Source: Sarea resinae
Lineage: Eukaryota
Reading direction: 5' to 3'
Assembly (NCBI GenBank): GCA_026026165.1
Contig: JAPEUD010000020.1
Location: 1 to 64,000 of the forward strand
Length of the DNA stretch: 64,000 nt
In this document: positions 11,441-37,052 of the stretch, in pieces
Layout: each line of letters opens with the position of its first letter
How positions within the stretch are numbered: the first letter of the stretch is position 1
Notes under the pieces: model-generated
The model's database searches: none
Told to the model about the DNA's origin: nothing
The model's input: only the letters and a program-made list of their open reading frames with translations
Position numbers and translations under genes: made by a program

Positions 11441-12738
11441 GCACAGCTGCACGCACCCACGTTCGGACATTCTAGAAATCGACGTCTCCCTCGCAGAAAC
11501 ACACGCACCTACACACACTCTTTCTCTGTAATATTCTCTCCTGTACTACGTATATCTTAGACATGAGGCTATATCCTGAAAATATTTAGATTGCGAAGAG
11601 CTCCATTACAATTCGGCTATCATCTTCTAATTTTGTGATTGTATATTTTGCAGATGTTCTTACCAATCCCAGTCTTACCTTGAATGATTTTTGTTCTAGC
11701 ATCTGCTCTGAGTAGTACTTCTAGCTGACCTCCATCTTTGCCTGGGTTCTGTCGTCTCAATGGGAATTTCCATCGAAAATGTAGGGTGCCAAGGGATAAT
11801 TGAACGTCCGATACTACTACAATTGGCAGGGAGATAAAGCATCCAGATGCTGCTATTCAAATGATGCCGTTCTCCACCGCCGGACAATGTCTCTGCGCGG
11901 ATTCTAACTGTGCCTTGGCATGGATAAAGCTGCTTTCTTCTCCTTTAGGTCTACAAAGACGGACTCATAGCGAAGAGCAAGTGCGATCGTGTAAATGTAG
12001 AGCCTATTAGAAACTACTTTGAGGTTGTGCAAGTCAGCTCTGTCTGCTTAGTAATATCCCCAGTCTCATCCCGCTTCAGTACTAAACTAGACTCCAAAAA
12101 ATATCGGTAGGAAGTGTAAATCAACAACAGCTCGGTCGAGATATATCATCGCGCGGAAGCGCTGGGCTCAGAGTGAAGATTCTGCAGTACCATATTCTCT
12201 AGAGCAGACTGCTGTAATGCTGCTTCTTTGGCCGATCAGGAGGGTGGAGGGGGATCCGATAGCTGAATGTTCAAGATATAAGCGAATTGACAGCTTATTG
12301 CTCATGATCAGAGCAAACCCCCCCTTCTATTCCAGGAGCTGCCCGACCAAGCGCTAATATGGAACTGTGGTATCTAGAGAAGCTATGTATCACCGCCATG
12401 CTCGGCAGCTAGGCCTCTGATGGCGTAATTTCTTTCACCATGGCGCATGTAGTTGCAGCTTACATGCTGTTCACTCTTCAAAACAGCTCAAGAATTTGCA
12501 GAAAGTGACGGAAATCTCTCAAGAACTCTTGCTTCTCTCATATTCACGCCGTGTTTGCATGCTTTCCCTGGGTGGTGTAGGTGACTCCGACCCTACACTT
12601 CCGCTATGAAACCCATTCGGATCCCCACCTTCTTCTCTTTCCTCACCTTGCAGAAGATAGTCTTCCGAAGTGCTTCCGCATCGTCACCGTAGGAACTCGT
12701 CATCTCTAATTATGAACTAAATTGAACGTTCATACATC

Positions 12739-12894
12739 AAATCACCTTACCCCTGCCGACCATCATCATCATCATCATCATCATCATCCTCCTTCCATCA
12801 CTTCTCTTAGTTTCCACCACGGTACAGAGTACTGGCCATACACTGTTCTGATCAGCTTAAACCCTCTGAACCAAATCACCTTACCCCCGCTTAC

Positions 12895-12928
<34 letters not shown>

Positions 12929-12930
12929 TT
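12739..12930 (+). repeat. Tandem duplication with (CAT)n microsatellites upstream of helicase A
   Basis: AAATCACCTTACCCC...CCATCATCATC occurs at about 12739 and about 12874, each followed by a (CAT)n run. Confidence 0.85.
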
Positions 12931-13538
12931 CCGTCAATTCTCTTCCACCACGACCAGACACTTGCTCTCTCAACCAGAAGTCCGTTAGAGGAAGCTCGGA
13001 AGCCTCAGCTCACAGCCTTGAATCATGCATTTTCACCAAGGTACACTTCTAGCATCTCATTGATCCTCTAATCTCCGGGCTAACATGAGCTCACTCTCTT
13101 TGAATCAGACTGTTCACTCGTTTCGTTATTTCCTCCTGCTTCACTTGGAGAACGACGTCTCCAAGACTGCCTGATAGAGTTCTAGAGGAAAAACAGCCCT
13201 GAAAGTCCGCACTGCTAAGGTGAGCCCTGAACTTTTCACATTCTCCGCATTTTGAATTTCACCACTTGAGATTGCTTCACCCTCTCAGTATTCACGTATA
13301 GTGGAAAGCTTGCAAGTTGCAACCTCTATTGTTTCGCCTTCTTCTTACCTGTTAAACTCTCAGTCCTGTCGGTGGCTATCCACCTTCGTCACTATCCACC
13401 TTCACTTTCCACCATCCATCCACCATCCACCATCTATCCACACATTTTTCATCCATTTTCAATCCATCAGTTCTTTGGCTTCTCTTGTTCAGCTTTTCTA
13501 ACCAGACAATTACCGCAGTCTGAGAGAATCCCTCCGAG

Positions 13539-16500
13539 ATGGAGAGAACCAAAGGTACTTTCCGAGTTGAGGAAGATGGTGGCAGCATGACACCCGATGA
13601 CGCGAAAGAAGAATATCACCACCCCGTCAAAATAATCATCATCAATCCCGATTGCAAAGTTATTGACCTCGGAAGCTTCCAATCTCACGAAGGCCTGTTC
13701 ACGACTGTCACTCTGGATATCTGCATGAAGAAGAACTGGTATTCGAATATATCACTCAACATTGCGGTCAAATCGGGAGAGTACAAGCTTCCAAAAGTGG
13801 CATCGAGTACTAAGAACCCAACGTTGGAGATCAAAGAGATTCATCGGTACAAGTTTCAGTTCACCAACGCTGAGTTGCTGCCAAACTTGCTCATATGGAA
13901 TCTTCCGCCCACTCCTCCAAAGGAGCCTGACGAGGACTTTGCGCAAAGCTCTTGGTACGAGAATCTCTATAATAGATTCGCTACGAAGACAGAAGCGACC
14001 AAGACACAATCGATGCGTGAATATGGGCGTCTTGCAATCATTGATTTCGATTTTTATCCTCGAAATGTCTTCATTGGAAATTGCCTTGCCGACCAAGTCC
14101 AAGATATTGGCCGGTACAGCATAATTCGCGACTTTTTCGGTCCAGTTTTCGGCGAAAGCAAGGACAAAGTCCATAGAGTAGTTGGATTTGTCCATCTGAA
14201 AGATTTGAAGCAAAAACAGGAGAAAGCCACCAAGGAGGAGTCAAGCGTCCATCAGGGATATTTAGCACGGCGTTTAGGGGACTATAAGCAACGCATCCAA
14301 GAGGAACGCCGTGCCGACCCAATGGAGGCTTTTTTTGTATCCGCGAGAAATGCTGGCCGTATGCGTCCGGAAAATCTCGTCAAACCAGGCCAACGACCGG
14401 CCGTGCATTTCGAACCAGAGCGAATCTTTGTCAGTGATAGAGAGTGTTTTTTTCCAATCGGATTGGCTCTTATCCAAGATGAAGAGATTAGGAGAGCCCA
14501 TAACATTGAGTCCCGACTGATGAAGGCCGAACTGCGCTTGCTCAAAACTCTGAAGGGCTCAGACCGCCTGTACTACGGCACCTTACGCCTTCCTCACGAA
14601 TACCCTGTCCGAATTGAAAATGACAACATCCTTATGATCACTTTTGAAGATTAGAACTTAGGTTCATGGCTCGCACAGGTTATTGAAGCTCATATGATCC
14701 CATGGGCAGTCTCGACCGATCTACCAGTCCTCGTCAAACGTCCCTTCGACAAGGACGCAGGCTTTAAAGCAAGGGAATCCAGTTCACGTACTCGACTTAT
14801 CGACTCTCAAACTGCCGGATGAAGCCGCTACCGTTCGAAGATACCTCAAAAGCGGTGCTTTTAACGTTGTGACTGCCAAGTTGGAAGCAAACGACAAGAC
14901 ACAGAAGTCTTACTTGAATGCTTTGGAGATACTCAATCCCATGGAGACTCGCAAAGACGATGAAAAGGCAATTGCAGCACACTATCGCAATTTCCAATTA
15001 GGACACAATATCGGCAAGCTTCCAAAAGTTGACATCTTTAAGCATATTGACGTCGAGACCGAAGTGACTGGAATTACAGCTGCTCTTGGCATTGATCTTG
15101 ATGAGGCTCAGTTGCAAGCCATCAAAGTCTACTGCCGTGAACTTCCAGATGGTATTGGCATTCTTGCTGGTACGTGGGGAGCAGGCAAAACTCATGTTAA
15201 CGTTGTCATCACGATGATACTTCTTCGAGCCGGCCAAAAGGTCTTAATCTCCTGCGCGTCAAACGATGGCGCTGACGCCATAGCCTTGCGGCTCAAGCAG
15301 GCGGCTGAGCTAGTCTTTGGAATTAACACTAAACGGATCTATCGTTGGCATCAATCTAACAGCGAGAAGAGATATTTTCGTCATGCCACGACAATTAACC
15401 CAGAAATACGAGAAGACCGCTGCTGGTTCTTCAAAGAATCCGCTGCCGAAGAGCTCATTGTCCAAAAGACTGTGGAGTCAATGGTCGAACGCGCGAGGCA
15501 CATGCCCAACGGGACTCCCGACAAGCGCCTGAAGCTGCTTCAGATGACACCAACACATGCCATCATCCAAGAAACTGGGCTCTTGCCCTTTCTACCAAGC
15601 ACCAAAGTCTCAGATGGATCGTCAGGCCCAGGTCTCAAGCCTGTGTCAGAAGATCGGCCTGATACCGATGACGAAGGCCAACATACCGAATCAGAATCGG
15701 ATTATGAGTCTAACGTAGATGAACAGGGCGAGAATTTCATGAGACCTAAGACGAAGTTCAAGAAGGTTGAGATGAACAAAACCGCTCGTGAAGCTTTGCT
15801 GGCCAAATTCTACGCCAACAAGCCGAAAGCAGAACAGCCACCGACCAATCAGAAGATGCTGCGATCTTAGGTGGCATATTGCTTGAGCTTGAGTCTAGCG
15901 TCGAGATACCACCAGACATGGCTGCCGAGCTGAAGTCACGTTTGGCAAAGATGATGGACCAAATGGCCGACCAAGCGGACGTCGTCATTGCCACGATTCA
16001 CGGGATCACGAACAAGGAGCTGCGAACCCATTTCAAGCCAAATCTTGTACTTTGTGACGAGGGTCAACACATGAACATTGCCATGGCGAACGTGCTCTTC
16101 GCCAACTTCCCTTACGTTCCAGCGATTTTCAGTGGTGACAACAAGCAGCTGACTTCGGTCAAGTATGGGACCAAAGGCAATTCCGCGGCGTGCTACCTCA
16201 ACGATGACATTGTTTCCCGCGAGATTAGACGTGGGCGTCCTTTCCTACAGCTGAGGACCACATATCGCAGCCATCCAGCTATCTTCGATATGTTGAATGA
16301 ACTGTTCTACCACGGTGAGGCACTCTGCGGACTCAAAGCATCCGACCGACCCCAGGCAAATAAGTTCATGAAAGTCTGTAAAGATATGGGCTTTAATGTC
16401 AAGGTGCCTATTCTTTTCTTGAACGTGGCAGATACCACCTCAACTCGGGTCGGCTATACTCAGTCATCGCGTAACCCAAAAGAAGCGTACGCCTCCAATT

Positions 16501-16922
16501 TGATTGAGCGCAAGCTCTTAGAAGGTGGAATCTCTGGCAAGATGGTCACAACGCTCACTGGATACATTGCACACCTAAAGCATTCAGCTAAGCAGCGTGC
16601 AAACATGCCCCGCATGGATACGACAGAGCTTGATCAAGAATTGGCATCTATTGCCCACACAACCATAGCCAAATATCAAGGCGAAGAGAATGAGATAATA
16701 ATCATTAACAACGTCAGAGATGGAAAGCTAGGGTTCATGGCTCAGAGACCTGTCTTGTATACTGCTCTGTCAAGAGCCAAATCGGGTATCATATTTATCG
16801 CCAACGACTCCAGCATTGCTGACGATAACATCTCTGCCAGCTCACGCCGAACTCCCACCGCGTACGCTCTGCTAGGGATTATTGCCAGAAAATTGGCGTT
16901 TACTATAGAGCGCTTTAGTTAG
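13539..16922 (+). pseudogene. Helicase copy A: near full-length Upf1/DNA2-like SF1B helicase with an unknown ~450-aa N-terminal region; disrupted
   Basis: Three ORFs are collinear. Motifs: Walker A AGTWGAGKT, Ia LISCASNDGAD, Walker B LVLCDEGQH, III SGDNKQL, IV TYRSHPAI, V TTIAKYQGEE, VI LYTALSRAK. Lesions: in-frame TAG at 14652-14654 (the frame stays open beyond it), +1 shift near 14770, return shift near 15830. No introns evident in the CDS. Confidence 0.85.
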
Positions 16923-16924
16923 CA

Positions 16925-17330
16925 GAGTTTTCAAGACAATATCAATAGCTCTTACTCGAACTTTAAAATGAAGCTTTACACACTTAGTATAACGTAATTA
17001 CAGTATTTTTTGCTAGGTAAAAGTGAGATAATACTTCTTGTAGATATACTAGGTAGGTACTAACTCTTAGAAGAAGAACTGTAGCATTGAATCTACTCGT
17101 CTAGAGAGATAGAGTAGAATAAATATGTCTTAGTGCTGGAATCGCCGTAGGTAGAAGATAATATATATAAATAGAGAAGAACAGGTCTATACTGTATAGC
17201 TATCACTAGATAGCACCTATATTCTATTGAAGCACTAAATATTACCTTTATTACCTTACTAAGTAAAGAGTCTTAGTAAGTAGGGTCTCTACTTACCCAC
17301 AATTAGGATTGTACTATCTATGGACTTCGG
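16925..17330. repeat. AT-rich, TpA-rich RIP-like decayed tract
   Basis: Abrupt drop in GC with abundant TAG/CTA/TATA directly after helicase A. Similar tracts occur at about 28540-28990, 33050-33310 and 37260-37800. Confidence 0.6.
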
Positions 17331-17689
17331 AACTAATCTACCTGCCTTGCCCCCAAGATCAGCATCCCTAACGACCGCCTTACCCTTATCCTTCGACAAA
17401 TCAGGGTACATCAGAGGATCGTTCAATATGTCTCCCATCCCTTGGCCATTGTTATCGCCGTATGCCCATTCATCGTCGTTGATAACTAACTAGCTCTTAA
17501 AGTTGCTTAAGTAAGAGAGTCTTCGCTCGGAATTTTTTGTATACTTGCTAGCAGAATGACTGCTTTGTAAGATATCCCTTAGTAAGACTCTTATTAGATA
17601 GAACGCAACTTAGTTGCTAGCTACTTGTCCAGTTGCTAATCTTTCTAGCCATTGTCAAGGGATTAAGCAGTCGCACCAGATTAGTGCTA

Positions 17690-18060
17690 AAGAACCGGAC
17701 AAACCCAGAACTTCACGATCAGGAACCAAGTGATAGATGAGTGGCTGCTGTTCTTGTTGCCCGACTGCAGAAAAAACCCGTGCCTTTATAGAGAGAGTAA
17801 TACTATAATTATCTTGCGCGCTAGCAGAGGCGTGCTGCAGTTATCCCTCATACGAGACATGAGATATTAATTCGCCTAGGGCGGGGAAACATGCGGTGCT
17901 GAACATCGAACATGAGACACATAAGCCCGCAAAAGTGCAGGCGGGCGAAGAGGGATACTGATTCGCCTAGGGCGGGAAGCATTCGGTGCTAAACATCGAA
18001 TATAAGGTAGGTAGGTAGGTAAGACGCATGAGCCTGTAGAAGTGCACCTGTATGCGGGCG
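17690..18060 (-). pseudogene. Helicase fragment B' (motif IV region, D-subfamily), internally duplicated
   Basis: Minus strand reads FARLHFCGLMCLMFDVQHRMF...ALGELISHVSYEG*LQHAS, matching copy D (LACLHFCRLIFDVQHRMFHALGAWVSHVLYDGQLQHAS). The 25-mer GAAACATGCGGTGCTGAACATCGAA at 17886-17910 recurs identically at about 31158. A second degenerate copy lies at 17962-18000. Confidence 0.75.
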
Positions 18061-19520
18061 AACCTTGACATTTCCCACGTACACAAGGAGTATTTTCGCA
18101 CGGGAAAATGCAACACACATACGATGAGGATCTTTTAGGAAACCCATATTCGCTGTGTTGGTGATCTCAAACATCACATACTTGCGTTTGCCACCCTGGA
18201 AACTGTCAATCGTCTTAACTTCCAGTTGGGAGAGTTCTCGATTGAGTCTATTCGCCAGTTCTCGAATAGAAAAGCTGCAGGCGAGATGCACTGTAATTAA
18301 TTATGATTGCAATCTCTGACGGTTGGATAGTCTCTATAGCCAGATGTTTCTCGACTAAGTTGATCGTGACTGTAGTATTTGAAATATTGTATCTTGATGT
18401 TTTAGCATTTATTGTCATCTTTCTATCTATAACTTCAAACCACTCAATATAAAGTAGTATAAATTCATGGTCTTTCTTTAAGGGCCACTCAGCGTTGAGA
18501 AATGCAGATATAGTGTCTCTATTAATAGCTTGCTCCTCTTTCAATCTTAGATGGTCAGTCCGGGCACTATTGTACCAGATATCTGATATAAGGCGGCGGA
18601 TATCTGCGTGCATCCTATGTTGGACACGGAGAGTCGGCATATCGTATCCTAGAATTCTGACTCGATTGAATAGCGATCGAGATCCTTAGGCAGCGAATCC
18701 ATTAACAGGAGTGTCATTCTCACGAACATTCCGAGAAATTGAGAGTGGCTGTAATTGTTTCTTATCACCTACAAGGATAAACGCACGTGGCTAGTAAAAG
18801 CCAGGAACAATCACAAGCTTGTGGTCTAGGATCTTGGCTGCCTTATCCACGACGATGAGATCTAGCTTAACTCCACGATAAACTGCTGCTGTAGCAGCGT
18901 TTGTTGTGGTGGTAATAATAACGTCAGCTATTGCCAGGACGTCGTCACGTAGGTCGGTGCATGCTGTGGTAAAATTGTTTTTCTTTCCTTTATGCTCAGC
19001 TTATCTTCCAGGTGATCATCGAAAATAGTTCCGGAAAGCGCTGAATTTCTTCGCATCTGAGATATCTGACGGAATTTTGCCAGAACGCTTTAACATCCAT
19101 GTTGCCAGCGGGCGAAGAGGGACATGCGAAAATTGGTGGCAAAAGCATTGAGTAGAACTCTCTTGCTTGCTTGTCAGCTGAGTCATTGGCGGCAGAGTCC
19201 AAAGCAGCAGAGCCTGAGGCGGTAGAGACTTGAATGTTCTGTTCCTAAGTATTATACTGTGCATCTTTATTGTCCTAGGCATGCTTCTCTGCATCATTAT
19301 TGTCCTAGGCATTCTTTTCTGCATCGTTTTCTCCCTAGTCGTTCGTCCCTAGGGCTTCGGCGTCCGTATTATCCTTGAAAAGGGTGTTATCTCTGGAAGT
19401 GAAGTACCTAGTAAGGGAAGGAGCCTTCGTAGTAGTCGAATCTGCTCTAGCTATAGCTAGAACAATGCGAGCGCCAGCCTGTTCTGCTTCTAAAGGCCTT
19501 GCTCTTGTTAATCAATTGTG
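18040..19520 (-). pseudogene. Helicase copy B: decayed Upf1-like helicase core
   Basis: Minus-strand pieces: PLATWMLKRSG, VLAIADVIITTT, LIVVDKAAK (Walker B with E>K), ILVGDKKQLQP, LRVQHRMHADI, VKTIDSFQGG, PHRMCVAFSRAK. Multiple stops and frameshifts. A 30-bp tandem repeat lies at about 19260-19325. Confidence 0.85.
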
Positions 19521-22500
19521 TTGATCATTGTTTGTTCTATCATAACTCTTTTTGTACTCAAGGTAGGCCGCTTTTTATGGTAGGGATACAAGAGTCGAGC
19601 ACTTCCTGATCTTCACAGAAGTGATAGTGTTGTGCTTCGTATAGTGATAGGATTGAGATGTTGAAATTGAGAAGGTTGGACAAGATTGAACAGGTTGAAG
19701 AGTTTATAAGGACCGAGAAAGATGTTAGCGAGGCATTCACTCCCCTTCGGCTCGCAGCATTGCTAATGTATTCACTGCTCTAATAACACATTGGTACTCG
19801 TCGATTCGCTGACTTTTGTTCGTTAACATAGTACTTTGTCATCATCGAGCAAGCGTACGCTTCTATATCGCTTGATACTGCTCGAAACCCTTTGTTAACG
19901 CTCCAAAAATGGGGTTTTCGCCAACCGTTTGAAACGTTTGGACCGATGGACCGTCGACATTAACTCTTGCTTTCAGAGGACCTCTGGGAGAATATCTCCG
20001 AGGAATTTGACGGAATCTGGTGAGTGTTTCCTGAGAGTAGCCGGTTGCCATGATAGTAGGAGGAGTAATGACGAGTGTAGATGACTTGACAAGGAAGCAA
20101 CAAAGTCAAAGAAGGTCAAAATAGTAATGGAAGAGAGGTGGAATGAGTATAGGATAATCGGATATCATTTGCAATGAAGTATGGACTGCGTGATGAGGCG
20201 GGAGGCCGTAATTTATAATCAAAAAAATTTCCCGCTAACGAGAAGAGCCCATCGCCTACGAGCATTCACTGTATCCCGAAAGTTAACCTATCCAACAAAT
20301 GATACGCATCATAGTCATGAAGAGGGGAGCGAACAGATTCAAAGTCCTCATTCACAGCACTCTGCGTTCCGTATCCTGGGCCCACATAACGGCCGCACGA
20401 TCATGCTGCGCCTTGCTCTCAAATCATTCATCTAGGATCTTCTCGCTTGCCATTCATGGGTCCGGCCGTGGTAGAGTACACTTCGTGTCGGTCGAATGCC
20501 TGTTGTAGTTGAGCGGTCGCATCTACCAATGATGTTTCGTTTGACTAGCTACCTTACCTTATGTTACTGCCTCAATTCGTCCAGAACAACTTCATACGGT
20601 CGATATATTTCAAAGCCTCAACATCCAGTGTTCTTCTATCATGTAGCCCTGCTGTCCTCTATCCAGGTATCCGGCTTCAACAGAATGCGCCTAGGCTTTG
20701 TCGCTCAAGTAACGCCATCCTTGCTGTGGCATGAAATCAAGCACTTTGACCCGGGTTTGATTTTTGCAGCTGAAAGAACGCGGTATAACGCAATGCCAAC
20801 ATCGTTTCGAGCGAGTTTGATACATATTCAGAGTGTAAGGTTGATGATATGTGGGGAGGGAAGGGTATCTTGAAATCGTCGTGTTTGAAGGTGTAAGACG
20901 CGTGTTCACACGCTGAATACGCGAAATGCCGATGACTTTTGACACTTTCGCGTTTTTCACGAGCCTATCTTCATCTCAACCTCAACCGCACCATCTCTAA
21001 TACTCAACCTTCTACTCCGACTTAACCTCTAATGTCATGTCTCAGTACTAATATTTAACATAGATCAGCACGTTAGCATGGCTGTTCTATTCCTGTTCAG
21101 ATCAGGCAAGACGCCCCTTCCAGCATCGAACATCACTACATGGACGAGCATTAAGAATAGCCAATCGTCGACGATGAGATAGCCAGGGATGAGCAAAGGT
21201 CGTTACTAAAGTGGCATTGCATTTGAGAGCTCGCTAGGCTCTGCGTGCATTCTTCGAGCAATAAGACTCGAAGGACGCACGGCCACCGGTTGTATATATA
21301 TAAAGACCCATGATCGTATCTCCCTCAACCTTTTCGCAAAAGGATCACTCGAGATATGCCCGACGACAACACTCTTTCGTCACTTATCAACCCCCTCTTC
21401 CTCCCCCCATGGATGCATGTGCTTAGAGTCCGCCAAGAGAGCCGGTGCCGGTGCAGCGACCCATGTACGAGCCTGTACACCGGTCAGTACATCTTATCAG
21501 CTGCACAATTTGGGGAGGAACCATTACCAGTGCTCTCGGTGGACGGGACATCACACTTAACAGAACCGTCCTTGGCGAGGTTCTCCTGAGGAGCATGGAA
21601 CGCGGTCCAGGGCTGTTTCTTGTCGGTGGTCTGCGGGAGATCCTGAGCCTCGACGTTGTCGAAAAAGTTTGTGGGTGCCATGTTGGGAGAAGACATCTTG
21701 AATGCTGAAAGGCAGACTGTTCTTGGTGACAACTGATTGAATTGATTTAGAAGTGTGTGAAGTTTGGGCTTGCCGGGGAGTTGGTTGTTGATGCCACTGA
21801 GTTATGGGGAGGAGTTGCCCCATTATATAGATCGGATCTGGAATACAGGCGGACACTGGAACACAAATCGAAAGCGAAATCTTGAGAGGAATTGGATGAG
21901 CAAAGCGCCCGGGAGTGTGAAAGTGGGGAAAGCAAGCAGGATGACGACAAAACCATTTGCCGTCCTCCCGTCCTTCCGTCCCTCCCCCTCTCGTTATTTC
22001 TTCGATTAGCCTTTTCCCTCTGCTCTTCACTTAACTGCGTATCAGTTTCGCACCTGTACGTGGGTGAGATGCTGCACTCTACACGGCAGAAAGGAGCGCA
22101 CAAGGTCTGCATCGAGCCATCTTCTGACCTTGCCAGCCGGATGAACGGCAGCACAGGGATTCGAAAGGGAATCAGCTGCCTTGCTCATTTACAGAGGGTC
22201 AACAAACCACTTCGAGAGCGAACTTTGCAGACATTAATGTAGATTCCATCTTGCTAAAAATGCTGGGGTTTGCTGATAAGCTGCGGGTCCAGGAGCATCC
22301 ACGCGTTCCAATCATCCTTGCCATACACATGTCTTTTCGGGTTACAGGAGTTGACGCGCAGCTTGTTCCTGCGGGAATCCTAATTATTCAGTTGCCACGT
22401 CTATTGCATGAAGTTGATGGCATACGTAAGGATGCGTGAAGAGGGGTAGAAGTATACGACGCATGAGGAGATGCGGGAGGCTATACAGGTACATGAGGTC

Positions 22501-27260: not shown

Positions 27261-27464
27261 CTCTTCTCACTCTGACGATCATCTACCCTTTGATCCTCTT
27301 CCTTGGTCGCCGTTGTCTTCCTTACTCCAACCCTCAGTACCAGCTCTGTTCTTGCCTGGTAAGCTACATCATCTTTCTCCTCCTCATGCTCTGACTCTTT
27401 CATCACTTATCCTCTGACCTCTTTCATCTAGCTTGTCCCACCTTCCATATCGGATCCTCTCACA

Positions 27465-28303
27465 ATGGATCGACCTCAACCCGATGACGATGAGCCTGCG
27501 CGTGTCGAACCTTTCGTCGAGAGCCCTGCCCTGCAGGTCCCGTCCTCTGACGAGATCCCAAGCGATCAGAACTTTTCGGTCCCAGCCGTGATTCATTGCC
27601 AGGATGGTCCGCCTCACCACCCTCTCTTCCTGGGAAAGTTCAAGGGTGTCGAACCCGGCATAAAACTTCGGTTGGCCTTCAACAACCATCCCCTTCACCT
27701 CTCGAACGTCGAGATCCGAGTCAACATTCGCTATTGCTCATCCTCTTCTATCTCCCAGGTTCCCCAGAAAGTCATCGAAGATCAGGCCGCTGTTCGCTAC
27801 ACCAGCGACCAGATCGAGGCGATTGAGATCTGTCGTGTTGCTCTTGAACCTTCCGACACCACTTGTCTTCCACCCGCCGAGCTCGCTGCGGTCGACGCCG
27901 AGCTCGACCACCATCTGCGACAAAACCTAATCTATCGATGTCAGGTCCGACTCCGTGCTGGTGCCGCCGTGAGGTACGCTTACAATCTCTTCAACTCCAC
28001 CCAGTACGGTGACCAGACCGCCTCCGTCCAGGCCGTCCGCGAGCATCTTCGCGCCGCCGCATCCGTGCTCACGCTGTACGTGAAGGGTGACATCAAGGTC
28101 CCTCAACATGCCGCCGCCCTCTCCGCCCGACTGGACGCCGAACACACCGCGCCACCCCTCTATGGTTGGTTCCGCACCCATCGTACACGCATTTTCCAGC
28201 AGGTCGGCGACTCCGAGCATCTCCCTCGTTCCAGCCGTCCGCGCATTCTCCCCCGCCAAGTTCCTTCTCCGCCATCGACGAGTACGTCGTGGTGAGGGGC
28301 TAC
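27465..28303 (+). pseudogene. Piece C: N-terminal region of a second helicase-family gene, truncated
   Basis: 276-aa ORF with weak similarity to the copy A N-terminus (LFLGKFKG..SNVEIRVNI vs IDLGSFQS..SNISLNIAV). After a frameshift in a C-run it reads FSAIDEYVVVRGY, aligning with FVSDRECFFPIGL of A. A 5'-leader intron candidate (GTAAGC...CTGAC...TAG) lies at about 27359-27430. Confidence 0.6.
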
Positions 28304-29544
28304 TACTGTCACGGACGAGGCAGATCGAAGGGATATTTGTTAGCATGAGTTTGGGGGGTCATGGACCTGGCATGCGGGGTTTCTTCGAAGGATTTTTTTT
28401 CCCTGTTTGTCTTCCTTTACTTCACTTCATCGGGGCAGAGCAATTCCCAGCGTATCTCATCATCAATGCTATCTATAATATGAGAAACACTGTTCGCATA
28501 CGCATGCCAAGTGACTCTGACAGCATACCTTACACGGCTTGATAGAGCGCATCTATAGCCTGATTAGCCCTATCAATCAACCTAGCGCTAATAAAGCTAG
28601 CGCGACATAGGTTTTAGCCTGCGCTAACCTTAGGGCCCTTCTGTAAGAATCTTATCCTTACACTCTAAGCTATGTAGGCCCTAGGCCTACAGGCTCTGTA
28701 GGCTCTGTGAGATTATCATTATCATTATTAACGCAGGCTAGGCAGTCAAAATTTAGACTGCCCTACTGAAGGAGGCGTAGCATAGTCGAATTTTGCACCT
28801 AGGGGTTAAGCATCTAGTATGCACCATAAATATGTGCAAGTCTGTTAGTAATTACTATATATAGCTATATAGGGCTTGACATGGCATGTCTTTACATTTT
28901 CACTATACGTTTCAGTTGAGAGCTGGTTTCATTTTGTAGCATTGTATTATTCAGTGTAAGGTTTAGTAAATAGGCAAAAACTGTTCCTATGTGCGCCAAA
29001 AAGACTACTATAACCCGGTTCGTCCGGGTCATGCCTATTTGCCTACTATATAACAGCGTCCCGCACAAAACCAGACGTGCTGTCATCGTGAGCGAGCGAT
29101 CATTTAAGGGTCAGATATGTAGAGATAGCGCTCTGTCGCAGACGTTTCGCTACTTTCGACTGATAGATCTCTAGTGAATAACGTCAGAGAGCCCGATATA
29201 CCAATACTGCATGATGTATATGTAACAGCATCAGTCAAAGACAAAAAAAGAAGAAGGGATAAAAATAATAGTAGTCAAGCAGAGCAAAGACCACTAGCAA
29301 TTAAAAGTGAATAGAGACTGGAACCAGATACAAAAACATAAAATCCGCGAGCAACAAATTCACATAGATAGACCCTCCCGCAATAATTGAAACAAGGCAA
29401 ACATAGCTTGATAGCTTGTTCATAACCTTGGTCTTTCTAGAAGGTTACTTCGCAAATGCTCGGCGAATTTATCGGTCTCTTGCACCTGTTTGCGGATGCA
29501 AGGTGGACCACTACCGGTCGTTGAAGGGAAAGGAACGCAAAATG

Positions 29545-30110
29545 GGCTCGAATTTGCGTCGATGGTGTCATACATGTCAACGGGCGGCAGGGCATCTGGC
29601 ATATTTCCAGAAAAGATATTCCATTGGGTGTCGGCATTCTGATCATCCTGCAGGAGACGAAGCAAATTGATGGAACGAGGGAAGGCCTTGTCCGAACAGA
29701 TCGGAAGAAGCTTGACCGGGGCGCGAGCGACCTGGACGAGGGCATCGCGAGTGGCGGAGAAGGAGCGGATGGCGCCACAGGCGACGATGTGGAGGAGAAG
29801 GTCCGACTGCTTCCACGTCATGGTGGCGGCATTTCAGGGACAAGGGCTAAAGTGAGATAAAGAGGCGGGTGAGAGGGAGCGGTTCCACGACGACGGCAGA
29901 CCAATCACCTTCCCGATCGTTGATCTCGGGTCGGGAGTTGACCACGAAACAATTCCCGGCTTGAGCAGCCAGGGAGGGATCCTTCAATGAGACGAAGGCC
30001 ACATAACGATGATCGTCGGCTCCAGGGATGCTCATGAGGGTGGCCAAACGGACAGGATCGATGTTCTGCGCCGCCGCCGCAGAGACGGACCGTTGCTCCT
30101 GGATGAGCAC
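29545..30110 (-). pseudogene. Piece D2: middle (pre-helicase) region of the helicase-family gene
   Basis: VLIQEQ..AQNIDPVRL..RYVAFVSL..GDWSAVVVEP aligns with ALIQDE..AHNIESRL..LYYGTLRL..GSWLAQVIEA of A. DKAFPRSINLLRLL..LPPVDMYDTID aligns with DKTQKSYLNALEIL..LPKVDIFKHID. Confidence 0.7.
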
Positions 30111-30720
30111 GAGCGAAAATGGAGGAGAATCTAAACTCCTGTCATCTGCAAAATGATCTGCTATTTGTCCCTAGTAAACGGCCTTCCAAGGGCAAGTCCT
30201 CTCTATATCTCCCACCATGGAGCCGCTGAAGCCTCCGCGCCTCCGCTCTTAGCCATATTGGGCTCGGCTACTGATTTCTCGTAATGCAAGATTTTTAGCA
30301 TTACCGCCTATGCATAATAGCAGAGGGTATAGTCAGGGTTGACATCCGCTGCCGTACTGCTTTGCTGGGCCTTTAGAGACGTCGTTGTTCCACGCAGTGG
30401 TATTGTTCTGGTGCGCCGTCAGTTAAAACTTCATTTGACAAATTCATGGTGGGGAAGATGGCGTGCATACTCTTCCAGCCTCGGCATCTATACACGCGTC
30501 CTCCATCGCACTTGCTACAAAAGAGAGCACCAGCACCTCTGAAATGTTCGTCACAAGTCGGCTTTGCTTTCATGTGTGAGATGAGCTTTTTTATGTGCTG
30601 GGCGAGTTAGGCGTTTGCTCCCCTGCATGCCTTTGATTTTACCGATGTAACAACCGTATCGAGCGCAAGAGAGTCCGAAGTTCAGCCTTGACCTTTCATT
30701 CATATAGCCGATATTCCTGG

Positions 30721-32170
30721 TCACGACCAGGTCCAGAAAGCAGACCGCATGCTCAAGGCCTTGGAAGCCATCGATCTTGCGGACAACGCAATCAGACTAG
30801 TCAATCCTAGGTTGTTCGACTTGGAGGTTGGCGAATGCAGCTCGGTACAGAAGGAAATGGTCTTAGTATGGAATTGAAAGAGTATGTCTGCAGGCACCAC
30901 GACCTTAGCGGTTATCAGGCGAGTGACTAGTGCCAGGACGTATAACATGTTCTGCACTTTCTTGGTCGACTTCGTTAGAGAGGATCGGATGGCCTGCCCT
31001 GACAGGATGTCGAGGAAGACCAGAGCCGAGTTGATGCCAGAGTTGCTCTGGTTGTAGTCGGAGAGAGCTGCAGTGAGTGAATTCGGATTGGTCGTGTTAG
31101 ACGCATGCTGCAGTTGTCCATCGTACAAGACGTGGGAAACCCATGCGCCAAGGGCATGAAACATGCGGTGCTGAACATCGAAGATGAGTCTGCAGAAGTG
31201 AAGGCAGGCCAGGAGGGACATGCGGAGATTAGCTACAAAGGCATTGCTCTGGAACCGGGCCAGGGCCAGGGGATGCAGTTGCTTTTGGTCTCCTACGAGG
31301 AGGAAGACCGGAGAACATACTCTGCGATGAACATTCGACATTTCGTGCTCAGCACCCTTGCAAACCTCGTCCACAACGATAGCATCAAAACGGTTCTCGG
31401 CTCGAAGAAATGCATTGCCCTCATTGGAACACGTAGTAAATATGATATCCGCGAGGCTCAGAACGTGGTTCCAGAGACGTTTAGTCTGGACCCGGAAGGC
31501 TTGGAGCCCCTCTGAGTCCATGTCCCCCTCGCGATACTGGTGGAAACAACTACGAAACTCGGCCCATTCGGACGGGGATTCGTTCATGGGAGGCTGAATG
31601 CCGGCGACCTGGAGCATCCAGGTGCCGAGGTAGAGGCGAAGGATGCGCAAACGCTTGTCCGAGATACCCGACTCGGTCTTGGTGGTTTGGTCGTGCATGG
31701 TAAGCACCGCGTGCGTGCCATCATCTCGTCGACGGCGGCGAGCTCGTCCGGGGAGTCCTTGGGTAAGAACCCAAGGCAACGTCAGAAGCGATCGGTAGGG
31801 GAGAGAAGAGAAAGAAGAGAAACCAGAGTTTGGGGCCAACCAATGTGGGGGGGTTGGATGATGGCTGGCCGGCGGTTGGGAACCGGGGAACGGGCATTCA
31901 TCGCCGGGGCTCAGGTGACAGCATCTTCTTTAGAGAGGGAGTGAAGACGAATCACGACGAGACTGCGCGTGACGGACGGGCACACCTTGGTGAGCTTGTC
32001 CAAGGTGAGCGCGGTGTCCGAAAGGGCATCGTTCACAGGAGCGGTCACAAGGATCTCATGAGGCAGATGCGTGCGGCGGTGAGGATGGGCGACAAGTGAA
32101 ATCAGGGCACGGATGAGCCAAAAGGTTTTGCCAGTGCCATTGGGCCCTTGGAAGACACCCCAGCCGCCGG
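30721..32170 (-). pseudogene. Piece D: Upf1-like helicase core, frameshifted and C-terminally truncated
   Basis: Walker A GWGVFQGPNGTGKT at about 32125-32165, in a frame not shown in the ORF track. Also ILVTAPVNDAL, DKRLRIL (cf. A DKRLKLL), LADIIFTTCS, IVVDEVCK, LVGDQKQLHP, DVQHRMF and KIDGFQGLE. Confidence 0.88.
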
Positions 32171-32192
32171 GGGGGGATCGAATTCATCCCTC

Positions 32193-32570
32193 TAAGCGGA
32201 TCACCTTGTACGTCGGATAAGTATGACTTGAGCATGGCGGAGCCTCTGTCTCTGAACCAAGATTGACGGTGCTTCTTCACAAAAGTGCTTGATCGTATAA
32301 TGATGATCAGGACATCAACGGACTGCCCATCTATGTTAGAGATGTTTTTTTTCGACCACCTCTGCGGGCTAAAATCCAGCAATGTAGAGCTATGTTGCCA
32401 AGTCTCCGAGCTTGACTCGACAGGTAGAGAGAAGTCTCCCGGGATTTCTTTGCTTTCGTCATGTGTAATAACTGCGATGATGTTCGCTTGGCTGAAAATA
32501 AAATGGCGACTACAGAGAAGGGCTTCCAATGAGTAGCGATGGGAGCAGTATGAGGGACCTTCCTTTGATT
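32193..32570 (-). repeat. Copy 1 of a diverged coding-like repeat (copy 2 at about 34787-35295)
   Basis: DNA similarity such as GCGGATCACCTTGTAC / GCGGATCCCCTTGTAC, GAGCCTCTGTCT and TTTCTTTGCTTTCGTCA. Conserved minus-strand frame DVLIIIIRSSTFVKKHRQSWFRDRGSAMLKSYL vs DVLIVIVRLSSFVNKPRQSWY*DRGSAVLKSYL. Confidence 0.8.
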
Positions 32571-32699
32571 TCTTCGGAGGGACTGAAGATTGAGAACGGG
32601 ACCTTTTGAACCTTTTGGCAGGCTTGCTGGATTCGTCAATTTTGTTAGGTTTTGTCAAGGTCTCTGCGAGACAGTTGGCACGATCTGAAACACTGTGCT

Positions 32700-32920
32700 G
32701 GATCCTTTGACGCTATATAATAAGTCAAGTATGTCTTTTTGGTAGCACCAGGCTAGTCGCATTTGGATACCTGGCACTTGAAATTGCGTATGCCATAATG
32801 GACGTTGAGTTGCGGGATGATGCTAGAGCTGCAGTGATCGTGTAGGATGTGCAACATTAGCTCGGGTGCAGTTGATCGAGTCTCGGTGCAAATTGCACAA
32901 GTAACCTTGCCGTCTTTGAC
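32700..32920 (-). pseudogene. Decayed C2H2 zinc-finger coding remnant
   Basis: Minus strand CAIC-x12-H-x4-H (CAICTETRSTAPELMLHILHDH), followed in frame by CQVSKC-x12-Y with an internal TAG. Confidence 0.55.
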
Positions 32921-33535
32921 TATGAGAGGTCTCTCTCTCTCGGCGTAGGTCTTGGGCCATTCAAGCTCAATTTCAGTGGTTCTTTAGTTGGGGTGACTGG
33001 CTTAGAGCTAGGAAGTGGTATCTTGTTACGGCGTCTTGACCTTGCACGAGCTTCCTGAACATGAAGGCGTTGCGTGACTATAGTCAATTAATTCTGAGCC
33101 TTTGCTATAAGCGTTTATTCCTCGAGTAGTGCTAAGATGTGGTTGAGGTTCCTGTTGTGTTTGAGTGTCTCTCCTCTTTGTATTTTTCTAGCAGATCGAG
33201 ACAATCTCGTTGACTAAGGTAAGTAGTAGGCCCAAATAAGGTAGTTACGGTTAGTATAGGTAGCTACCTACCGTATATCTTCCACTGTATACTTCGTATT
33301 ATACTAAGGAAAGCGTGATCCTTGCTGCCCGGGTGAATAATCTAGTGAAGGAAGGAGCGTTCGCAGTGAATGATTCTTCTATAGTCACAGCTGATTCAAT
33401 CCGAGCGCCAGTCTGTTCTGCTTCTAGCGTACCCTGCAGTTCGACAAGATCTCAGAGGCCTTTGCTATTGTTATACAAGGGAACGCTGTTAGTGTCGTTC
33501 CTGAGAACTCGGAGCCATTCTTCATCTTCGTCGGT

Positions 33536-33790
33536 CTAAGACAGCGCGCGGACCTTTCTATTGTATTCCATGAGCGCACAGAAGCGACTGATAGAAGTGT
33601 TAGGGGCATTATCGTTCCAGAAATCCCAGTTGCCTACGACAAAACGAGCGTATTGGGCCCGGGAAAGAGCCACATTTACGCGGTTAGGTTGCCCTAAGAA
33701 TCCAACTTTGCTATTAGCTTTAGAGGTGCAGAATATCACGACAGGGCCATTGCCTTCGGATTTAGCTTCTCCCACCGAGTTCCGTCAGCA
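33536..33790 (-). pseudogene. Helicase fragment E (motif V-VI region)
   Basis: VVIFCTSKANSKVGFLGQPNRVNVALSRAQYARFVVGN is the canonical Upf1-like motif VI. Confidence 0.8.
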
Positions 33791-33911
33791 GGCAAAGTGG
33801 ATTCTGGGGTTTCGAGAGATCCGTCCAGTAGTCCATGAAGATCATTAGCCCATAGCTCGGGCCGTAAGCGGTTGAACCATCGTGTGTTATTGCTGGATCC
33901 GTTTAGCTTAG

Positions 33912-34590
33912 TCACATTGAGACTAGCCAGTGAGGCCTCCAGAGATTGGCCTTAGGATCTAGAACATATGCATCGCAACCGAAGACGCGAAGATGAGAGA
34001 GATCTGGTCTCTTCTTCATGAGAATTTCGTATGGAGTCAGCCGTTGCTGGGTGCCACTAGTCGGACTCCTATTGGTTAGATAAATTGCCGTATTGAGCGA
34101 CTCTAGCAAGAATGTCTTGCTCAGGCCTGTGTCTATAAGATGTGTCCTAGCTTTTCCAATTACTGTGCGATTAGCACGCTCAGCAATGCCGTTTTGTTCA
34201 GGTGTGTACGCCACGGTGGGCTCCCATTGGATGCCTTCGTCTGCTAAAAATAGCCTCATGCCTTCGTTATCAAATTCGCCACCTCCATCGCTGCGCAGTG
34301 CCTTAGGAGTGGTATGATATTGCGTCTTCATCTTATTGATGAAGTCCACGATGCAGTCAAACACGTCTGATTACTTCTTCAATGGATACATCCAGCGATA
34401 ACGAGAGAAATCGTCAGTCAGAAGTAGGTAATATCTATTACCAGAAGCGGTAATAGTATCCTCAGAAAGAGAGTCTCCTCCGCCTCCCACGTCTGCGTGT
34501 ATGCGGTCCAAAATGGCAGTAGTTGGAGTCATCTTCTTGCGAGACGTCACGATGCTGCTTACCTAGTACGCACGCCTCACAGAAGTCCTT
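33912..34590 (-). mobile_element. Ty1/copia LTR-retrotransposon integrase fragment
   Basis: FCEACVLGKQHR (pre-integrase Zn motif), IHADVGG, LLLTDDFSRYRW, LRSDGGGEF, YTPEQNGIAERANRT, AIYLTNRSP and PDLSHLRVFGCDAYV. It carries a stop and a frameshift; no RT, RNase H or LTRs are seen. Confidence 0.92.
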
Positions 34591-35028
34591 GGACCATGGC
34601 TGTATTCCCTGAGCTCTGTCAATGTTTCGGATATGTAAGTCTAGCAGAGAACAGAAGCCTTTCGTGGCCAGTTGTTGAATTTTCTCGGTTATCGCCTACA
34701 GTTCGACAAGATCTTAGAGTCCTTTGTTATTATCGATTGCTTGATCTGATGGTCGCTTGTTTCAGAGTAGGTCCTTTTAGACTCTCGGCGGATCCCCTTG
34801 TACATTGATTACCTAGGTAGGACTTAAGAACGGCTGAGCCTCTGTCTTAGTACCAAGATTGGCGGGGCTTGTTGACAAAAGAGCTTAATCGTACTATGAC
34901 GATAAGGACGTCAACTGACTGTCTATATATCTCCGGCTTGTTTTTTCAATAGCTTCAACATAAAATCCAGTAACGTAGAGGGATTCTCCCTGGTTTCCAA
35001 CCTTGACTCGGCAAGTAAAGAAAGGTCA

Positions 35029-35172
35029 CGCCGGCAACGACGAGGTCCAGAATGCACACCTTACGCTCCAATCCCTGGAAGCCGTCTATTATTTTATGGA
35101 GCGTCGGGCAGGTTCAGTCGCGACGTTCGGCCTCTAGATTGGCCAGGGTGGAACGGTAGAGAAGGTACTGAT
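35029..35172 (-). pseudogene. Helicase fragment F (motif V, D-subfamily) inserted in repeat copy 2
   Basis: QYLLYRSTLANLEAE..KIIDGFQGLERKVCILDLVV, compared with D: HFLLYRAAFANLQVE..KIDGFQGLEHAVCFLDLVV. Confidence 0.75.
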
Positions 35173-35419
35173 CCTGGGTTTCTTTGCTTTCGTCACCTGT
35201 CACAGCTGCGATAGTTTTAGCTCGACTGAAAAAGAGGTGACTACAGACAAGGGCTGCCAATGAACAAAGACAGGAGCAGTATAATACGCCTTCCTTCAAT
35301 TTCCTCAGAGGGTGGTTTGATGTCTCTGACTAAGCTCTTTTGAGACGAGCCAACTCGGGATTGTCAGTCGTCTATTGTGAAGGTTTGAAAGAGAATATAA
35401 AATTTGGTTAATAACTAGG

Positions 35420-36110
35420 CTGGGTAAAAGCCTGCAAAGATGGCGACTTCCGGTGAGGGTAGCCTCAGAGTCGCCGCTTGGCAGTCGTTGATAGGGGTGT
35501 TTTAGAAGAGAATGAGGTATCGAATTTGTTTTATAACCAGGCCAGGTAAAGGCCTGCAAAGATAGCGACTTCCAGTGAGGTTGCCTCAGAACCGCTGCTT
35601 CTCATAAGGTGGGGCCCATGGGCATTCAAGAGAGTAGTGTACCCAACAGATTCACTTGCTGTGAATCCGAGCTTCCCATCGCGGCCGTTGTGAATTAGGA
35701 TGACGTATCATTTTCGTCGCCTTGAAAATTGGCAATGGTCGTATGAGGCGGGCAATAGATGCCAGTTCTTCATCAAGCGCTGCGGTAGTCATCGCGCGCA
35801 GAGGGAAATTGCCTAAAATAAGAATAAAAATCCGGATCCTGAATGGCGGAGTCGTTGGCTATGAAAATAAAACCCGACTTTGCTCTTGAGAGAGCAGTGC
35901 ATATGACAGGTCTGCTGGCCATGAACACTAGCTGGCCATGAACCCTAGCTTTCCATCGCGGACGTTGTTGATGATTATGAAATCATTTTTATCGCCTCGA
36001 AATTTGGCAATGGTAGTGAAGTAGGTGAGTATTCTGCAGAAGATAATAATTTCTAATGAGGTCGCATCAAAATCGCCGCTTCTTATAAGGTGGGGACCAC
36101 AGAGATAAGA
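35420..36110 (-). pseudogene. Helicase fragments G (motif V-VI, A-subfamily; two overlapping copies)
   Basis: TTIAKFRGDKNDFIIINNVRDGKLGFMAS and RPVICTALSRAKSGFIFIANDSAI are close to A (TTIAKYQGEENEIIIINNVRDGKLGFMAQRPVLYTALSRAKSGIIFIANDSSI). A second copy HTTIANFQGDEND..GRDGKLGF lies at about 35660-35745. Confidence 0.82.
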
Positions 36111-37052
36111 TAGAATGAACAGACAACGAGGTTTGACAAGGCCTTCTATAAAGTGGTCAGGCATCGGTAGCTTCGAATGGATAATGCAGAAGACTTGGTA
36201 AGTAAGAAATATATATAATAAAAGAATGTATGAGTTGTGGCGGCGTAGAGTGCAACCAGACGAAGAAACACAGAGACTTTATAGAGTATGCAATGAAGTG
36301 TGAATGTCGCCGAATCACGACCGCACGTCCACGGTGAGTATATTCTTCACCATCAGAATATGACCATGATTATGAGCATTGGCCATTCTTTCAGAAAGGA
36401 GACCGCATGCTGCAGGCTAGAGCCTGCGACATTGGACTTAACCGCCTCATTCACAGCGCTCTAATTCCCGAATGCTGTGTCCACACGGCGGCCGCTCGAT
36501 CAGACAGCGCCATATTCGAACTTTCGAGTCATCAGTCGGGAACTTGCTTGCCATCTAGCCATGTTATCTGATGAGAAGGCCTGCTTTTCGAACAAAGTGT
36601 TGAACCTTATTCGTCTCAAATTCTGTCAGACCCATAAGATTGTACTGTATAAAAGAGATAGTCCTAGAGTGAATGGCATCATCAAACGAACACTACTTCT
36701 GACGATACTATATATGAGCTGATATAGGCAGTATCCAAGACCGTACGGATAGGAAGATCGATTGCAGTGAGTACCGTATCCATCGATCAGTTGACGCATC
36801 TCGGTCTTGAAGAAGTACGTAGATATGGTGGGAGCTGACTAAGCAAGCAAGAGACTATTTCACGCATGACTGCTACTACCTCCTACCTTCCCTAGATACT
36901 CTGAGTACTAACGTAGTACTCCGAGTAGGTGTGAGAATCGCAACAATCCTCACTATGAATGTACGAGTGAGTGAGCACTAGGTACGCTGGCGTTACTACT
37001 AGGAGCGTATGACTATTTAGCAAAAATACAGAAGAAGAGCAAAAAAAGAAAC

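Follow-up and report, generated by a model that had tools for sequence, protein, structure and literature searches.

Helicases of the Upf1-like group of superfamily 1B (SF1B), among them UPF1/NAM7, IGHMBP2, Sen1/SETX, DNA2 and Aquarius, are built from stalk helices, a 1B beta-barrel, a first RecA domain (RecA1) carrying a 1C-like insert and a second RecA domain (RecA2). UPF1 itself is a conserved single-copy gene. The locus described here lies in the first 64,000 nucleotides (nt) of contig JAPEUD010000020.1 of Sarea resinae (GenBank assembly GCA_026026165.1), a stretch that we call the window, and holds pieces of a helicase family that is alike in all these parts, whereas it is rare, patchy and clustered, with several divergent copies in one locus, all of them dead here. 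The original prediction, made from the sequence of the window, had seen in some 23 kb between a carotenoid oxygenase gene (carX) and a tRNA-Tyr gene followed by RPS4 an island of such helicases, either a self-propagating element or a birth-and-death array eroded by repeat-induced point mutation (RIP). With moderate confidence we read the island as a decaying birth-and-death cluster of uncharacterised Upf1-like helicases, pseudogenised and scrambled by patch duplications and transposon debris. A birth-and-death array fits what we find, several deeply diverged paralogues of one family, all dead, together with younger partial copies.

Other described loci resemble the island in part. Subtelomeric telomere-linked helicase (TLH, Y') arrays likewise contain full and truncated, recombining helicase copies. 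The TLH and Y' arrays carry RecQ-type or other superfamily 2 helicases at chromosome ends, whereas the island is of the Upf1 type and is flanked by carX and RPS4 within a contig of 349.5 kb. Helitrons and Starships are alike in that multiple fragments lie on both strands of a repeat-bearing region. Pfam searches, made with 22 open reading frames (ORFs) of the island, with the 67 other window ORFs of at least 110 amino acids (aa) and with 96 of the 219 island ORFs of 50-109 aa, set both apart. No HUH Rep, Helitron_like_N or PIF1 domain occurs in the 22 and 96 island ORFs, and the helicase is of the Upf1 type, not the Pif1 type; the Helitron hallmark HUH Rep, which the original prediction had not seen either, is indeed missing from them. 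Within the 64-kb window, the DUF3435 tyrosine-recombinase 'captain' of Starships is found neither in the ORFs of at least 110 aa nor in the 96 small island ORFs.

Broken helicase pieces in one interval

A profile of the family, made from 14 full-length relatives (alignment A1, 1030 positions), was searched against the six frames of the 64-kb window from stop to stop. It gave 20 matches at E<=1, of which 19 lie within 13605-36020, in the interval from carX to tRNA-Tyr/RPS4; the lone match outside the island is at 42202-42402 (E=0.58). In all, about nine broken and shuffled helicase pieces are spread over 23 kb (Table 1). Their coding regions had been predicted to lack introns, and the alignments with relatives are colinear. 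At least seven helicase loci on both strands had been predicted, and the profile pieces fall at their coordinates. AAA_11 and/or AAA_12 is present in 6 of the 22 island ORFs and in 0 of the 67 ORFs of at least 110 aa outside this first-scanned island set. In several pieces these domains exceed the Pfam gathering score, so that the predicted SF1B (Upf1-like) identity also holds. A tblastn search with 94 proteins against the regions upstream of D and of B, and against 21.2-25.3 kb and 10.3-13.6 kb, recovered no further family pieces.

Table 1. Features of the window, helicase pieces first
Feature	Position	Strand	Basis
Copy A, a full-length pseudogene comprising N-module, stalk/1B barrel, RecA1 (bearing an acidic insert) and RecA2	13539-16922	+	Pfam, profile
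B', 75-nt patch copied from the RecA2 region of D (D 31159-31221)	17884-17958	-	profile, DNA match
Copy B, C-terminal third of helicase	18022-19126	-	Pfam, profile, P0040 alignment
Piece C, N-terminal module only	27567-28303	+	profile i-E 7.5e-15
Piece D2, stalk and 1B-barrel region, downstream of the 3' end of D	29514-30276	-	profile, P0040 alignment
Copy D, helicase core only	30563-32183	-	Pfam AAA_11 and AAA_12, profile
D0, unrelated sequence replacing the N-terminal region of D; duplicated as F	32190-32712	-	aa match
Piece E, C-terminal ~60-70 aa of Upf1-like helicase	33542-33808	-	AAA_12 E 1e-7, 32.2 bits
F, copy of D0 with inserted 57-nt patch of the C-terminal motif region of D	34782-35386	-	DNA match, profile
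G, 2-3 partial copies of the 3' coding part of copy A, internal duplications	35618-36020	-	DNA/aa match
AT-rich non-coding repeat	28841-29507	.	depth 999 vs ~345 (~3x); Logan contig ends 28999-29020
Copia-type retrotransposon integrase fragment, 0.45 kb	33915-34370	-	rve, rve_3, SH3_retrovirus (Pfam)
Phytoene desaturase	1.9-3.6 kb	-	Pfam
Phytoene synthase/cyclase	4.3-6.2 kb	-	Pfam
RPE65-type carotenoid oxygenase (carX of the original prediction)	8.3-10.3 kb	+	Pfam
tRNA gene, right boundary of island	37053-37139	-	Rfam tRNA 56 bits, by-eye read
Ribosomal protein S4e (RPS4)	38.6-39.6 kb	+	Pfam

Copy A is the sole full-length piece in the island (profile match 13605-16832, +, positions 24-969 of 1030; AAA_11 at 28.9 bits against a cut-off of 27, AAA_12 at 83 bits). 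It is interrupted by a TAG at 14652-14654 and by net frame changes at ~14731-14783 and ~15794-15870, and the same three lesions emerge from frameshift-aware alignments to each of the relatives P0012, P0013 and P0016. Through the TAG, with conserved residues on both sides of it, the alignments of four relatives keep to a single frame, and from ~14776 they go on in another. The translation retains GAGKT and CDEGQ. A public gene model, P0001 (M1819_002304, hypothetical protein), lies over this copy, and the ORF 13524-14651 is 100% identical to it. The model drops 14606-14709 as a non-canonical 'intron' starting GTCCGA, which removes conserved coding sequence; ~25 codons are then read in the wrong frame, and the model ends before the RecA2 domain. 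Given that the 'intron' bridges the TAG and a frameshift and deletes conserved codons, the P0001 model is the salvage of a pseudogene, and we flag the public record as a 742-aa 'protein' annotated over a pseudogene. Directly upstream of copy A, at 12738-12952, stand two copies of a ~85-nt unit ending in (CAT)9-11 runs; a tandem-repeat scan gave CAT runs and three short arrays only.

The remaining pieces B, C, D2, D, E, F and G are partial, with stops and frameshifts, and with the TAG and two frame changes of A this bears out the statement that no copy is intact. No helicase copy in the window is functional now. Lesions in B, C, D2 and D were counted with a custom frameshift-aware dynamic programme against the relative P0040, and the counts are noisy at this divergence. 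Copy B (profile match 18064-18988, -, positions 668-962; AAA_12 at 55 and 42.3 bits) corresponds to P0040 residues 609-963 at 35% identity (122/347), interrupted by 2 in-frame stops and by one or more net frame changes. Piece C (27567-28247, +, positions 25-247) covers residues 38-248 at 31% identity, with 0 stops and 1 frameshift, and piece D2 (29552-30107, -, positions 269-463) residues 198-454 at 38%, with 2 stops and 3 frameshifts. Copy D (30593-32180, -, positions 485-973; AAA_11 at 44.6 bits, AAA_12 at 29.2 bits) covers residues 462-974 at 40% identity (198/500), with 4 in-frame stops and 2 frameshifts.

The smaller pieces are in part copies of the larger ones. The B' region 17826-17955 is 74% identical in DNA to D 31099-31218. 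The source of G is A 16614-16817, from which it differs by inversion and by 15-25% of its nucleotides (75-85% DNA identity; 78% aa identity over 54 aa); its profile match lies at 35833-36020 (-), with extra partial copies at 35618-35792 and positions 911-967 overall. D0 has no Pfam match and no usable ESM Atlas match. Its residues 21-167 match 35386-34808, that is F, at 35% aa identity (E 1.3e-21); F and D0 are 71-75% identical in DNA, and the D patch inserted in F lies at 35036-35092 (-). Upstream of D0, at 32756-32983 (-), a small ORF has a pattern like that of C2H2 zinc fingers and matches Endonuclease_7 below threshold (E 0.0019; 18.5 bits, cut-off 23.6). Together with an AAA_11 match (E 0.0075), also sub-threshold, this is all that Pfam returned for the 96 small island ORFs. 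Piece E has its profile match at 33551-33745 (-), positions 923-986; its tree position is unstable, and ~60 aa do not resolve its subfamily.

A rare family and its N-terminal module

The pieces belong to a small, rare and uncharacterised Pezizomycotina subfamily of Upf1-like (SF1B) helicases. Searched with P0001 by HMMER, 1.84 billion representatives yielded 38 proteins at E<=0.001, 13 at <=1e-10 and one at <=1e-30, P0001 itself. Full-length members have 972-1371 aa, carry AAA_11/AAA_12 and have ~450-550 aa before Walker A to which no Pfam family corresponds. Twenty representatives were looked up, four of which have an organism name while a fifth name came through another cluster member. The named sources are Xylographa trunciseda, X. 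parallela, Gallowayella concinna and Peltula sp., all of them lichen fungi, and Phyllosticta; most of the other looked-up representatives are unnamed metagenome proteins. All 20 stand in 90%-identity clusters of 1-3 sequences, on 1-2 contigs each. One relative has been automatically named 'ATP-dependent helicase NAM7'. Our literature searches found no description of this helicase family, and PMC11412873 deals with other helicase types. A small Upf1-like subfamily is thereby delimited, whose N-terminal ~265 aa lie outside Pfam.

Members are at most 30% identical to one another and form long branches. The N-terminal region is nevertheless kept within the family, with residues 44-355 of P0001 matching P0013 and P0015 and residues 240-358 matching most others. 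In the 14 relatives G474, G477, G479 and K480 (the G-G-GK of Walker A), E702 (the E of motif II) and R939 are invariant, and Q455, Q731 and R932 nearly so; we take these residues to represent Walker A GxxGxGK[T/S], the DE of motif II, the Q motif and the arginine finger. Against PDB sequences the family profile matches UPF1 best (5.9e-79), followed by ZNFX1 (2.8e-65), SETX/Sen1 (3.6e-61), IGHMBP2 (1.6e-57) and then DNA2 and Aquarius. A homologue search with the N-terminal part of copy A, in longer proteins only, found nothing beyond the window's own protein, and one with the 14-sequence alignment found P0040 and 40 generic helicases, no new family members among them. In metagenome contigs, P0040 alone as query gave 61 pattern matches and 0 relatives. 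A 6-sequence alignment (A3) gave 27 loci in such contigs that match only over residues ~470-980, with 24-44% identity; being generic helicases, they were left out of the context analysis.

The N-terminal 450 aa had been called unrecognised, and modelling of them with AlphaFold and Foldseek had been proposed. An AlphaFold2 model of the first 376 aa of copy A, made with the family alignment (mean predicted local distance difference test, pLDDT, 80.4; predicted template modelling score, pTM, 0.77), consists of a beta-sandwich (28-126), an alpha/beta part (137-224), helices at 237-263 and 305-331 and then the first barrel strands. Foldseek finds no match to the N-module model in the PDB at E<=0.001 (best template modelling score 0.13), and the VIA structure search finds none at Z>=8 among 48,161 chains. 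The top 50 VIA matches are mostly PH, PTB, EVH1, Ran-binding and FERM-C domains (Z 5.3-7.1), the best being 1zc4_B (Z 7.1, root-mean-square deviation, rmsd, 4.0, 111 aligned residues). The model suggests that the module may be PH-like, a weak lead and not a fold assignment. In the ESM Atlas all scores of the N-terminal part of P0040 are below 0.9; clusters of ZNFX1/DUF6469 reach a feature score of 0.87, which we regard as no more than a lead. In the 23 members searched with Pfam (E<=1), the N-terminus has no domain of any kind, and the zinc-binding CH domain of UPF1, the PF25396 domain of ZNFX1 and NFX1 zinc fingers are absent. The family thus differs from a UPF1 orthologue in being without the CH zinc-knuckle domain, and from the Upf1-like group as a whole in an N-module of ~265 aa without a clear structural relative.

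The rest of the protein is of the Upf1 kind. The AlphaFold2 model of P0012, an intact relative of 990 aa (pLDDT 73.3; helix 128-154, strands 157-235), superposes on human UPF1 (2gk6_A) with Z 31.0 and rmsd 4.2 over 581 aligned residues, which span model residues 122-955. Other Z scores are 29.4 for IGHMBP2, 27.6 for Sen1, 24.6 for coronavirus nsp13, 24.1 for Dna2 and 23.3 for ZNFX1. Because the match to UPF1 spans the stalk helix and the 1B barrel, ~150 aa of the '450 aa' are standard Upf1, and the first ~265 aa remain unexplained. The claim of an unrecognised N-terminus hence survives for the first ~265 aa, which have no known family, and fails for the last ~150 aa, which are Upf1 stalk and 1B barrel; the proposed modelling is divided in the same way, with no PDB match for the N-module and, from residue 122 of P0012 onwards, a match to UPF1.

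Descent of the copies and origin of the island

Is the island the outcome of one recent tandem duplication? The main copies have little in common (aa identity 18.5% for A and B, 18.8% for A and D, 23.9% for B and D). D and the patch in F are 83% identical over 18 aa, and D and B' 62% over 21 aa. Together with A and G these pairwise identities bear out the predicted subfamilies, A with G, D with B' and F, and B apart. In a maximum-likelihood tree of the helicase core (30 rows and 498 columns, including 8 ZNFX1-like rows), A is sister to P0012 and D is sister to P0040, each with support 100/99, and B falls within the larger clade of D (97/97). A and D are each closer to a protein from another source than to one another. 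Forcing A, B and D into one clade costs 115 log-likelihood units and is rejected (p value of the approximately unbiased test, p-AU, 1e-69); this grouping was chosen after a quick tree had been seen, yet it equals the a-priori hypothesis of local duplication. The rejection means that at least two anciently separated lineages lie together, in deeply separated clades, and that the island did not arise by one recent tandem duplication, as had been predicted. Forcing B and D together is not rejected (p 0.105), and B probably belongs to the D type. With Sen1-like, Dna2 and other helicases added to the tree, A/G and D hold their positions.

The young repeats between copies have another character. They are 37-251 nt long, 71-85% identical in DNA, and all of them are internal patches; in the self-comparison of the window none extends to a shared end. 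The similarity of A and G stops ~100 nt before the stop codon of A, so that they have no common terminus, and no terminal repeats bound any unit within the window. Two short markers on the far side of B, at 19399-19492 and 20346-20412, are found again at 33333-33426 and 36445-36511. Short internal patch duplications of this kind would be expected from template switching or error-prone repair more than from transposition.

We turn next to the erosion by RIP that had been proposed. Ten repeat pairs, nine of the island and one of the tRNA flank, were aligned and show 204 transitions against 195 transversions. Of the 64 1-kb bins, only 4 have a composite RIP index above 0, and two of these lie in the island (17-18 and 33-34 kb). 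These values speak against RIP, and the decay of the copies looks like ordinary neutral mutation.

A course of events consistent with a decaying birth-and-death cluster can be outlined. The ancestral genes would have encoded proteins of ~1000-1370 aa in four parts, the ~265-aa N-module, an Upf1-type stalk with 1B barrel, a RecA1 domain into which a long, variable acidic stretch is inserted, and RecA2. The analogy to UPF1, IGHMBP2 and Sen1 would make these proteins ATP-driven 5'-3' translocases on RNA or DNA. Genes of the A-type and D-type lineages, anciently separated, would have stood side by side. Young partial copies may have been added later, from the 3' part of A to G, from patches of D to B' and part of F, and from D0 to F. 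A copia-type fragment and the AT-rich repeat would have landed in the island, and the copies would have decayed through ordinary substitutions and indels rather than through RIP.

Several points weigh against this reading. Pieces C, D2 and D, over the residues given above, tile one P0040-like protein nearly perfectly, and the tiling pieces are misplaced: D2 follows D downstream on one strand, and C is encoded on the opposite one. Duplication and decay alone do not predict such tiling; either a single gene may have been broken up and rearranged, or three copies may each have lost a different, complementary part. The motif V/VI region is present in 6 pieces against 2 for the N-module, which resembles 5'-truncated insertions, although the excess of C-terminal pieces may reflect the most conserved region, the one most easily detected in degraded DNA. 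Diverged paralogues lying together on both strands, the nesting of a retroelement and the nearby tRNA would fit a transposon nest as well. In the tree, B leaves its clade and E floats, as unresolved long branches, once Sen1-like and Dna2 rows are added. The copies were mapped within the 64-kb window, and helicase activity, substrate and biological role are predicted from the fold alone. The odd features are limited to two, anciently diverged paralogues that lie together and one gene tiled by three misplaced pieces.

It is possible, though unlikely, that the helicase is the protein of an undescribed mobile element, or a regular passenger on one, and that the island is a nest of truncated insertions at a tRNA-adjacent hotspot, reached again and again by members of different subfamilies. 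At least two deep lineages are co-located, with pieces on both strands and a surplus of C-terminal fragments; the island encloses a piece of a copia integrase and a multi-copy, AT-rich repeat, its right border is marked by a tRNA gene whose flank has a degenerate duplicate, and the family is rare and patchy across fungi. Apart from the copia-type integrase fragment, however, the window ORFs of at least 110 aa and the 96 small island ORFs contain no domain of a transposase, a tyrosine or serine recombinase, an HUH Rep or a reverse transcriptase, and no DUF3435. Similarity between copies stops inside coding sequence, as it does for A and G, and the terminal repeats that could bound a unit in the window are missing. 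Read depth is flat, copies at >=95% identity are absent from the sequencing run, and the relatives stand in 90% clusters of 1-3 sequences. Our literature searches found no Upf1-type helicase in fungal transposons. To our knowledge, no class of eukaryotic transposon uses one. The self-propagating, helicase-only element of the original prediction is accordingly not upheld, in view of the scanned island ORFs, which hold no transposase, recombinase or Rep domain, the lack of shared ends, the flat depth and the low-copy relatives.

A second alternative, that the family consists of fast-evolving RNA-surveillance or antiviral helicases like ZNFX1, Hrr1/SAD-3 and MOV10 and that the island is a lost defence cluster, seems to us decidedly unlikely. 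ZNFX1, Hrr1 and SAD-3 share the Upf1-like core with the family, as the profile and model scores for ZNFX1 given above illustrate, and the best non-family matches of the RecA2 part of copy A are ZNFX1-like proteins (E 1e-5, 22-33% identity). The long branches, the low identity between members and the patchy distribution would also suit a role in defence. In general, conflict genes tend to be clustered and to be pseudogenised wholesale. Yet this reading draws on analogy with ZNFX1, MOV10 and Hrr1. PF25396 is found on the matched ZNFX1-like proteins, whereas the 23 members have neither it nor NFX1 zinc fingers, and the family forms a clade of its own, apart from 8-10 ZNFX1-like rows. There are no immune-type genes among the scanned island ORFs, and no copy in the window could act. 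If the intact relatives in Phyllosticta, Peltula, Xylographa and Gallowayella do act against mycoviruses or transposons, or in RNA surveillance, they would be a new fungal branch of ZNFX1/MOV10-type immune helicases, in which case the locus would exemplify loss in a single lineage.

Less probable still is the broader proposal that Upf1-type helicases with a PH-like N-module are the signature of an undescribed selfish or conflict element of lichen-associated and related ascomycetes, either a mobile unit bearing the helicase and aimed at a landing site beside a tRNA gene, or an innate-immunity family maintained as clusters of ancient paralogues, of which this locus, with two or more deep lineages, patchwork copies and complete loss, would be the fossil record.

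The stretch is not an assembly artefact at the contig level. Logan contigs of the one run with this stretch cover 14718-33499, overlapping and with 0 differences, at a flat depth of 337-391; the coverage starts at 14718, and 13500-14717, including the TAG of copy A, lies outside the listed pieces. As this run probably underlies the assembly itself, the check is not independent. It was the one run returned for the stretch, and no RNA run was listed with it. Single Logan contigs span 14718-23474 and 28999-32951, and the latter reproduces the order D then D2. The exception in depth is the bin 28841-29507, with 999, where two contigs meet at 28999-29020. C joins D2 through this AT-rich repeat, where the contigs break, and its adjacency and orientation are therefore less certain. 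By eye, the loose ends of the contigs resemble Nextera (Illumina) adapters, and should the reads come from Illumina, the frameshifts are unlikely to stem from indel errors. That the island is a metagenome mis-join, a chimeric contig or the product of sequencing errors giving false frameshifts is very improbable, for while the genome is a metagenome-assembled genome, the contigs of a second assembler break at the 28999-29020 repeat and near 23.45, 26.1-26.3 and 32.93 kb, and the odd orientation of C could be a mis-join at the repeat, single contigs without a difference run from the 3' two-thirds of A through B to 23.4 kb and across D2-D-D0, depth is uniform, the adapters look like Nextera, which for Illumina reads makes homopolymer indel errors unlikely, and the fragments are 15-30% diverged from one another and thus not collapsed repeats.

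Neighbouring genes and other features

Three ORFs in the same frame inside the island (24677-25048, 25250-26071 and 26102-26764) match MFS_1/TRI12. The ORFs at 24677-26767 may be an intact gene for a drug-efflux-type transporter with short introns, and a transporter gene here would mean that the 23 kb are not one homogeneous element. Near the copia integrase fragment neither reverse transcriptase nor gag was found by Pfam in the scanned small island ORFs. The AT-rich repeat, which has no Pfam match, is probably a transposon relic.

An Rfam scan gave the tRNA only. ARAGORN, run in bacterial mode, calls it Ile(aat); read by eye, with the anticodon loop CT-GTA-A, it is a tRNA-Tyr(GUA) with a short intron. 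The tRNA and its flank (36992-37205) are repeated at 37849-38061 with 73% identity, probably as a degenerate second tRNA copy, called by neither ARAGORN nor Rfam.

To the right of RPS4, Pfam matches in the window ORFs indicate a major facilitator superfamily (MFS) transporter, an amidoligase, a glycoside hydrolase family 18 (GH18) protein and housekeeping genes. The amidoligase gene at 44503-45693 (-) matches Amidoligase_2 (PF12224, E 3.9e-19), a family known mainly from bacterial conflict systems. After its GH18 domain, the 690-aa ORF at 50345-52414 (+) contains a long internal repeat (50.95-52.1 kb) with units that are 66-73% identical; the sequence there is of unusual composition, with a GC skew of -0.29 and a (CpA+TpG)/(ApC+GpT) ratio of 2.34.

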